From Dehalococcoidia bacterium (GTDB taxonomy: Bacteria; Chloroflexota; Dehalococcoidia; Lucifugimonadales; G965248475), in NCBI GenBank assembly GCA_965248475.1, contig OZ252106.1, forward strand, positions 1,583,640 to 1,647,639: 64,000 nt of DNA, read 5' to 3'. How positions within the stretch are numbered: the first letter of the stretch is position 1; each line of letters begins with the position of its first letter. This document shows, in pieces, positions 48,876 through 49,922 of this stretch. Position numbers and translations under genes: made by a program. The notes under the pieces are model-generated. The model saw only the letters and a list, made by a program, of their open reading frames with translations, was not told the origin of the DNA and did no database searches.

Positions 48876-49922
48876 CTAGCCCGTCACATGCACTGCGCCG
48901 GCTTCACCATCCGCAACCTCGCCAATCACCGCAGTTACCTGAACACCGTGGCCAGCCAGCTCTTTGAGCAGCTCCTCCAGCCTACCACTGGGGACGGACA
49001 TGAGCAGCCCTCCGGAGGTCTGGGCATCGCTCAATATGATTTTCATCTCATGCGTTACGGACTCATCCCAGGTCACCAGTGGGCCCAGAGAGGCCAGGTT
49101 GCTGAGTGTTCCGCCGGGAGCTATCCCCTGCTTCGCCAGGTCCATTACGCCACGCAGCAGGGGGACGTTGGGCCAGGAAATATGTGCCGCCACGCCGCCC
49201 GCCATCATCATCGCCTTCAGGTGGCCCATAAGCCCAAAACCTGTTACGTCTGTGCAAGCATTCACCCCCACGTGTGTCATGGCGGCGGACGCACCCTTAT
49301 TAAGCGTCTCCATAATCGCTATCGCTTCCGCCAGCGCATCCGCATCCACCACACCGTCCTTCCCAGCGGTGGTGATAATACCCGTGCCTATGGGTTTGGT
49401 CAGCACCAGGATATCCCCCGGCCGTGCGCCGGCATTGGTAACCTGATCTCCCGGCCGGATCAGCCCGGTCACCGCCAGGCCGTACTTGGGCTCAGCGTCA
49501 TCTATCGTGTGACCTCCAACGATGAGCAGGCCCGCTTCGGCGGCCTTGTCGTACCCACCCTTCAGAATGGTCACCAGGATCTCTTTTGGAAGGTCCACTG
49601 GGAACGCCGTAATGTTCATCCCCAGCAACGGCGTGCCGCCCATGGCGTAAACATCGCTCACGGCATTTGCCACGGCGATGGTACCAAAATGGTACGGGTC
49701 GTCCACTATGGGCGGGAAGAAATCCACCGTCTGGATCAGGGCAAGGTCCGGGCTTAGGCGATACACCGCAGCATCATCACCTGTCTCCGTCCCCACCAGC
49801 AGGTCAGGGTCGGATACCCGTGGTAGTTGGCGCAAGACCTGCGCCAAGTCCTCAGGACTGAACTTTGAGGCTCAGCCGGCGCAGCTGGCGAGCGCGGTAA
49901 GCCTGACGGCGTCCTGCTGCAT
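48876..49922 (-). CDS. selD: Selenide, water dikinase (selenophosphate synthetase), Sec-containing
   Basis: ATG 49922 after GGAAGGGAG. MQQDAVRLTALASCAG-U(TGA 49874..49872)-ASKFSPEDLAQVL aligns with the E. coli [13 protein letters not shown] loop. LVGTETGDDAAVY and DFFPPIVDDPY motifs. SECIS hairpin downstream. Confidence 0.9.
49827..49847 (-). promoter_or_regulatory. Bacterial SECIS hairpin for selD UGA
   Basis: UUGGCGCA-GGUCU-UGCGCCAA, a perfect 8-bp stem starting 24 nt after the UGA. The apical GCAGGUCU resembles the E. coli fdhF SECIS apex. Confidence 0.8.

Follow-up and report, generated by a model that had tools for sequence, protein, structure and literature searches.

A selD gene of a Dehalococcoidia bacterium with a probable selenocysteine codon at position 17 and a shortened public annotation

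Does the TGA inside the selenophosphate synthetase gene (selD) of a Dehalococcoidia bacterium end a short reading frame, or does it encode selenocysteine (Sec), making the enzyme itself a selenoprotein? The question arises in a 64,000-nucleotide (nt) stretch of contig OZ252106.1 (assembly GCA_965248475.1, positions 1,583,640 to 1,647,639), analyzed here over its full length and referred to as the window. A mechanical list of open reading frames (ORFs) gives selD as 48876..49847, a 323-amino-acid (aa) product with a TTG start. Upstream in the same frame, on the minus strand, lies an ATG at 49922-49920; translated from there, the frame runs through 348 codons to a TAG at 48878-48876, with a single in-frame TGA at 49874-49872, codon 17. 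Around this codon it reads MQQDAVRLTALASCAG-TGA-ASKFSPEDLAQVL, and the longer read after the TGA is ASKFSPEDLAQVLRQLPRV, continuing to the TAG. A preliminary description of the sequence had read the UGA as Sec, and the coordinates that it had assigned to the ATG, the TGA and the TTG-started ORF all proved exact. On the evidence set out below, selD of this Dehalococcoidia-type bacterium very likely encodes a protein that is itself a selenoprotein, with Sec at UGA17.

We searched protein profiles with the read-through product, in which Cys had been substituted at codon 17. It matched the NCBIfam equivalog TIGR00476 (SelD) at 1e-110 with 369.9 bits (cutoff 125) and NF002098 (SelD) at 1.6e-103 with 346.3 bits (cutoff 299), the latter placing residues 1–345 on profile positions 1–343 of 347. 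The AIRS and AIRS_C (PurM-like) architecture, PF00586 and PF02769, was found on a public protein record 100% identical to the product (P0001) and on all listed homologs. Among solved structures, the best match was E. coli SelD (3U0O; E = 3.2e-75, residues 1–343), and the product also aligned to the SelD structure 2YYE. Judged by these matches, the gene is selD (selenide, water dikinase/selenophosphate synthetase; COG0709), with catalysis predicted; the identity given in the preliminary description is borne out by both profiles above their cutoffs and by a match that starts at residue 1.

The alignment to 3U0O begins at residue 1 in both proteins and is gapless through the N-terminus, with MQQDAVRLTALASCAG[U]ASKFSPEDL lying over the E. 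coli sequence. The TGA therefore falls on Cys17, as had been proposed: A-G-[TGA]-A-S-K of the window aligns with A-G-C-G-C-K of E. coli, and the AAG three codons past the TGA corresponds to the conserved Lys20. E. coli SelD requires both Cys17 and Lys20 for activity, as mutant work established. The two proteins share the Gly-rich loop, Lys20 and the AIRS/AIRS_C fold. The E. coli gene differs in carrying a TGC for Cys17, with no recoding and no Sec insertion sequence (SECIS), and its loop reads G-A-G-C-G-C-K, compared with C14-A-G-U17-A-S-K20 in the window.

A genomic scan for selD, with one genome per species, yielded 80 loci with tblastn matches starting at query residues 1–7, and all 80 matches begin upstream of the TGA codon. 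The closest loci, at 55–73% identity, belong to metagenome-assembled genomes (MAGs) of Dehalococcoidia and other Chloroflexota. Codon 17 is TGA in 41 of the 80 loci (hereafter Sec-type) and TGC or TGT in 39 (Cys-type); all 19 of the closest loci, from Dehalococcoidia and other Chloroflexota, carry TGA. The motif RLTxLxxxxG-[U/C] is common to the 80 loci, TGA-type and Cys-type alike, and downstream of the UGA the conserved protein pattern xxK..DL.QVL follows in the same frame. Over the ten codons 5' of the TGA, mean entropy was 0.89 at the first codon position, 0.56 at the second and 1.54 at the third (45 TGA-type sequences); such third-position-dominated variation is the signature of sequence translated in that frame. 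A lack of conservation upstream of the TTG at 49847 had been named beforehand as a finding that would overturn the reading of the UGA as Sec; conservation was found there, and upstream of the TGA as well, throughout the 80 loci. The three nearest relatives, taken from metagenome contigs at 88, 86 and 78% identity (L081–L083), have the same ATG and the same TGA, and AAGGGAGCTATG of the Shine-Dalgarno-like region is kept in them. The start Met also aligns with a Met in L001–L004, L007, L010, L012, L014 and L017.

Downstream of the UGA lies a hairpin, termed register A, that reads UUGGCGCA-GGUCU-UGCGCCAA as RNA (TTGGCGCA-GGTCT-TGCGCCAA as DNA) and encodes L26-A-Q-V-L-R-Q32. Its stem is a perfect Watson-Crick helix of 8 base pairs (bp) that begins exactly 24 nt past the UGA, precisely as in the preliminary description, and its loop lies 32 nt past; the UGA-to-loop range of bSECISearch is 16–37 nt. 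RNAfold placed the hairpin in both the minimum free energy (MFE) and the centroid structures of the region, at -12.5 kcal/mol. About nine distinct perfect hairpins of at least 8 bp with 3–8-nt loops occur in the 64-kb window. Counting nested registers separately raises this to 16 hits; Markov-simulated windows average 7.4. From the number in the window, we estimate a prior of about 0.3% that such a hairpin would fall in the interval of roughly 20 nt allowed for it after a given TGA.

In bacterial SECIS elements, a G occupies the first or second loop position (PMC13582414), a rule with which the GGUCU loop agrees. Across the Sec-type loci the apex is [G/A]GU[C/U/G][C/U], with G40 and U41 nearly invariant, which fits the same rule. 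The preliminary description had also likened the apex to that of the E. coli fdhF SECIS, an in-ORF stem-loop past a UGA. The fdhF sequence used for comparison, containing GCAGGTCTGC, is 100% identical to fdhF in 5,419 of 5,426 E. coli genomes. The likeness holds: an apical GCAGGUCU is common to both, the window having one extra U, and both loops contain G and U, with G in the first two positions. The window hairpin differs from fdhF in its 5-nt GGUCU loop closed by A-U, its perfect 8-bp stem and the lack of a bulged U.

To compare the hairpin among relatives, 72 nt around the TGA were aligned without gaps for the 41 Sec-type sequences and pairs were counted for named structures, register A being tested with a possible G39-Y43 closing pair added. 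Register A pairs in 74.8% of cells. Cells with changes on both sides numbered 27, compared with 11.2 ± 2.5 in shuffles, none of 500 shuffles being as high, and the covariation score was 0.263, whereas slid controls did not exceed 0.104. These columns form no helix in the 39 Cys-type genes: their 43.6% of pairing cells is the level given by shuffles and slid controls alike. Local MFE had a median of -12.8 kcal/mol in Sec-type and -7.7 kcal/mol in Cys-type segments (Mann-Whitney p = 4e-8), with the caveat that Sec-type segments are somewhat more GC-rich (0.65 vs 0.59). Register A is intact in L081–L083, and L083 has C-G in place of the outer U-A pair, owing to a synonymous change in each of two codons (Leu UUG to CUG, Gln CAA to CAG). 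The Lys20 codon columns A13 and A14 do not vary in any of the 41 Sec-type sequences. Register A is most likely the SelB-binding element in selD, SelB binding being predicted. The reading of the UGA as Sec thus draws support from the 41 TGA and 39 Cys loci, from a covarying hairpin confined to TGA-type genes and from the coding signature 5' of the TGA.

Several observations weigh against this reading. Within a coding region, constraints on the amino acids confound any covariation statistic, and the loop of the predicted SelB-binding hairpin is farther from the UGA than that of fdhF, which starts at 18 nt. RNAalifold gave no single consensus structure for the 41 Sec-type sequences, probably because register A competes with an overlapping hairpin, register B. 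In 15 Sec-type loci register B exceeds register A in stability by far; 13 of these belong to the 17 closest Dehalococcoidia-type loci. Three Sec-type loci (L018, L019 and L032) have neither. Furthermore, the 64-kb window holds no selA, selB, tRNA-Sec or ybbB, and a crude screen for UGA plus hairpin found no other selenoprotein gene in it.

Register B can form because GAC-CUG, encoding Asp-Leu, is the reverse complement of CAG-GUC, encoding Gln-Val. It takes the form GGACCUG-NNN-CAGGUCC and is the best hairpin, at -9.0 to -12.8 kcal/mol, in L001, L003–L009, L011, L013–L016, L066 and L073 (nt +23 to +41), in several of which register A cannot form. Among the 41 Sec-type sequences, 83% of its cells pair, with covariation not above shuffles. 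Register B may simply follow from the coding sequence, or may serve as another SECIS register. The window and L081–L083 favor register A over register B (-12.5 vs -7.4 kcal/mol in the window); since register B dominates in many relatives, we can only infer which helix SelB reads. A weaker upstream hairpin, register C, pairs in 55.7% of cells across the Sec-type loci, no better than after a one-column slide, and is the counterpart of the SECIS that BSepDB predicts for SelD of Acetomicrobium (PMC13326102). In Acetomicrobium mobile the predicted SECIS is the earlier helix, whereas the best hairpin of the window starts 24 nt past the UGA.

Cys-type genes were also considered for a hairpin of their own. 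GYGCCUGY-N11-RCAGGYRC, an 8-bp helix starting from the Cys17 codon, occurs in L022, L023, L025, L027, L028, L037, L041, L043, L053, L056, L057 and L074 and looks compensatory by eye; it was rejected, as its 76.6% of pairing cells equals shuffles, and it probably follows from the conserved A-C and Q-A codons. The register A hairpin had no Rfam match, either in a gathering-threshold search of the window or in a permissive search of 49700-50100, in which the only hits were chance ones, to MIR168 and Pseudomon-groES.

The Sec machinery was looked for in several ways. ARAGORN and Rfam found no tRNA-Sec in the window, and ARAGORN found none in the 41 loci. Almost every ORF of appreciable size in the window was scanned with Pfam and NCBIfam, and none proved to be selA, selB or ybbB. 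With E. coli selA and selB sequences as tblastn probes, there was no match in the window or in the Dehalococcoidia flanks; selA matched solely beside selD in three Desulfosporosinus loci. TGA is the stop codon of 9 of the 27 Pfam-confirmed window genes, whose domain alignments are complete, so TGA is not reassigned in this genome. The preliminary description had noted that Sec decoding bears on other in-frame TGAs, and we agree; the window yielded no convincing second candidate. A screen for a UGA followed by a hairpin with a G in the loop and a stem of 7 bp or more returned, apart from selD, only off-frame hits. One further TGA, at 43183-43185 between frames of 200 and 661 codons, was considered as Sec and rejected: it is the stop of pth and is followed by a separate secreted InhA-like protein. 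Chloroflexi have been recorded with the Sec-decoding trait and without selenouridine (PMC1794560, PMC5322559), and some Dehalococcoidia MAGs, with 46–49 selenoproteins, are among the most selenoprotein-rich bacteria known (PMC13326102). SelD and FdhA are the two bacterial selenoprotein families with the widest distribution (PMC1794560), and Sec is encoded by about 19% of prokaryotic SelD genes (PMC4561486). The published trait and the Dehalococcoidia selenoproteomes make an absence of the Sec machinery unlikely. The organism very probably has the Sec-decoding trait, and selA, selB and selC are presumed to lie elsewhere in its genome.

Could UGA17 be recoded and yet specify Cys, through tRNA(ReC)/SelC* acting with SelB or through near-cognate read-through? 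tRNA(ReC) has been reported to decode UGA as Cys given a downstream SECIS, which limits any selenoprotein call made from sequence only (PMC13582414). In that survey, however, tRNA(ReC) occurs in a minority of genomes, and nothing in the present analysis suggests it in the lineage of the window. The fixation of TGA at codon 17 in the 19 closest loci and the three nearest relatives is the usual pattern of true Sec, and the recorded trait of the Chloroflexi points the same way. We regard Cys insertion as improbable, and infer from the sequence comparisons that Sec, rather than another residue, would be inserted at UGA17.

More improbable still is a genuine stop at the UGA, with SelD starting at the TTG at 49847 or 49835 and the upstream 16 codons serving as a leader or short peptide. 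Gene callers chose the internal-TTG model for this protein and for its best 120 database homologs, and GAGGA precedes the TTG at 49847. The public record P0001, encoded on a 2.40-Mb contig, is 319 aa long and begins MRQLPRV, corresponding to the TTG at 49835; in a search of 5.8 billion proteins, the best 120 homologs were 276–328 aa long, with at most 94% query coverage. However, a SelD starting at Leu26 or Leu30 lacks the equivalents of both Cys17 and Lys20, as P0001 does. The codons upstream of the UGA are conserved as protein in 80 loci with coding periodicity, the hidden Markov model and structure-sequence alignments of SelD begin at residue 1, and Cys-type homologs read straight through the UGA position. 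The 319-aa public protein thus misrepresents the enzyme. The TGA might also be an error of sequencing or assembly, or a mutation that inactivated the gene, selD then being a pseudogene or truly having TGC or TGT at codon 17. In the same assembly, at least one probable indel (an error or a mutation), the cysK frameshift near 50520, does lie 650 bp from the TGA. The comparative data effectively refute this reading: the same TGA stands at the same codon in 41 independent loci and in the three nearest relatives from different samples, and TGA-type genes carry a downstream hairpin without counterpart in Cys-type genes.

With Sec at codon 17, the standard bacterial SelB mechanism is the reading best supported by sequence, SelB binding and Sec insertion being predicted. 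The ribosome would start at the ATG at 49922 and reach the UGA at codon 17, where release factor 2 would not terminate translation. SelB, with guanosine triphosphate and Sec-tRNA(Sec), would bind the apical part of the in-ORF stem-loop and deliver Sec at UGA17. Translation would then run on to the TAG at 48876, giving a SelD of 348 residues whose flexible, N-terminal Gly-rich loop would carry the catalytic Sec17 (Cys17 in E. coli) and the catalytic Lys20.

The active-site loop itself varies in the position of its partner Cys. Among the 41 Sec-type loci, a Cys stands at -3 only in 20, at +2 only in 18, at neither position in 3 and at both in none; all 39 Cys-type loci have it at +2. The clade of the window has the loop C-A-G-U-A-S-K, whereas other Sec-type loops and all Cys-type loops follow G-A-G-[U/C]-x-C-K. 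The SelD of Aquifex aeolicus (PDB 2YYE/2ZOD), a structural relative whose native form we take to carry Sec at the position of Sec17, also lacks a Cys at +2 (SSG-x-AAK). Other Sec-type bacterial SelDs belong to the same family as that of the window and resemble it in having the UGA in an N-terminal Gly-rich loop G-U-x-x-K and an in-ORF stem-loop just downstream, as well as in the tendency to be cut short by gene callers (PMC13326102). The clade of the window differs in having its Cys at -3 (C-A-G-U) instead of +2. SelD selenoproteins have been catalogued in Deltaproteobacteria, Clostridia and Actinobacteria (PMC1794560). The orthologous eukaryotic enzyme SPS2 has Sec at the homologous position, so that making selenoproteins requires one (PMC4561486); its SECIS is a kink-turn in the 3' untranslated region, read by SBP2, as opposed to the simple hairpin within the coding sequence of the window, presumably read by SelB. 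It is possible, though we hold it doubtful, that the Sec-SelD lineage of Dehalococcoidia and other Chloroflexota is a distinct variant in two connected ways: the partner Cys moved from +2 (U-x-C) to -3 (C-x-x-U), and in different sublineages the SECIS slid between the overlapping registers A, B and C within D-L-x-Q-V-L. The features of the locus are collected in Table 1.

Table 1. Positions of selD, its recoding-related elements and the adjoining genes in the window.
Feature	Position	Strand	Details or basis
Complete selD coding sequence	48876..49922	-	U at residue 17; translation, TIGR00476, NF002098, 3U0O alignment
Shine-Dalgarno-like purine-rich GGAAGGGAG	49925..49933	-	Read in sequence, just 5' of the selD ATG
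Cys14 codon	49881..49883	-	Loop motif C-A-G-U (CxxU) vs usual U-x-C; locus comparison
In-frame UGA, putative Sec codon 17	49872..49874	-	Aligned to E. coli Cys17; TGA/Cys split in relatives
Lys20 codon AAG of the Gly-rich loop	49863..49865	-	3' of the UGA, 5' of both annotated TTG starts
Register A, proposed SECIS core	49827..49847	-	5' arm 49840-49847, loop GGUCU 49835-49839, 3' arm 49827-49834
Register B hairpin AGGACUUG-GCG-CAGGUCUU	49834..49852	-	Excludes register A; 5 nt upstream; -7.4 kcal/mol in the window
Register C, weak upstream hairpin AGUCC-UGA-GGACU	49847..49859	-	Compatible with register A; RNAfold in L081, L082
Two internal TTG false starts	49833..49847	-	TTG at 49845-49847 (323-aa mechanical ORF) and at 49833-49835 (319-aa public protein)
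cysK (cysteine synthase A), upstream neighbor of selD	50083..51011	-	Pfam PALP split over two frames
HAD-family phosphatase-like hydrolase, downstream of selD	48147..48842	-	Pfam HAD_2 9.6e-37; also follows selD in L082

Within 50083..51038 the neighboring cysK carries a 1-nt frameshift near 50519-50520, where the window has ACGGCAGGGAG and the expected sequence is ACGGGCAGGGAG; one G is apparently missing relative to the intact orthologs, which include those of L001, L003, L004 and L081–L083. With the G restored, cysK scored 367.9 bits on TIGR01139 (cutoff 350.95), and the split points to a homopolymer error in the assembly or to recent pseudogenization. The adjacency of cysK and selD is kept in L001, L003, L004, L018, L052 and L081–L083 and might reflect shared sulfide and selenide chemistry. 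The HAD hydrolase and selD are probably in one transcription unit, and L081–L083 have the gene order of the window: cysK, selD, the HAD hydrolase and a convergent gene of the isocitrate/isopropylmalate dehydrogenase family (Pfam Iso_dh). The 160-nt leader between cysK and selD (49923..50082, minus strand) is about 85% identical to that of L081 and contains a small hairpin, GGGYGCC-GYAA-GGYUGCCC; the overall folding of the leader does not exceed that of shuffles (z = -0.05), no Rfam family matches it, and no promoter or terminator consensus stands out in it.

Other genes near selD were noted in passing. Upstream of cysK-selD, on the opposite strand, a DUF255/thioredoxin-domain protein of 684–692 aa is encoded at 52704..54782 (+), an arrangement kept in L001, L003 and L004; it resembles the thioredoxin portion of the model for the selenoprotein TsoB only weakly, below threshold. 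On the L083 contig, an Old-Yellow-Enzyme-family gene beside selD (2510..3963, +) has an in-frame TGA at 2966-2968 within FD-x-VEIHGAHG, at a position that we take to be a conserved Gly of the family, not a Cys. We rejected Sec for this codon: given the Gly position and the low coverage of the contig (7x), a base error or mutation is more likely.

Elsewhere in the window, an Rfam search at gathering thresholds reported a cobalamin riboswitch and a tRNA-Gln only. The riboswitch (RF00174, 114 bits, 60554..60737, minus strand) precedes three genes on the same strand that were characterized by eye: a 213-aa probable membrane protein (59747..60388), a 154-aa probable secreted protein (59263..59727) and a 205-aa protein with the histidine-phosphatase-like N-terminus LLVRHGETEWN (58568..59185). 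The long plus-strand ORFs that cover this region lack Pfam hits and appear to be spurious.

The Sec-SelD arrangement is already known in kind, and the locus described here is a textbook instance of low novelty, its -3 Cys and variable hairpin register being minor departures from known Sec-SelDs. A Sec-containing SelD means that selenoprotein synthesis depends on its own product, which has been known for decades and introduces no new principle. Should the lineage history outlined above prove true, the shift of the Cys to -3 would imply another selenenylsulfide geometry in the mobile loop of SelD, and the selD family would offer a natural series on the tolerance of SelB for UGA-to-loop distance. 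The main value of the finding lies in correcting the annotation of an enzyme whose best 120 database homologs are all shortened alike, in a family that is often misannotated and in a class of bacteria of which some members are rich in selenoproteins (PMC13326102). For the organism, a Sec codon in selD means that other in-frame TGAs in the genome need to be judged with Sec in mind.

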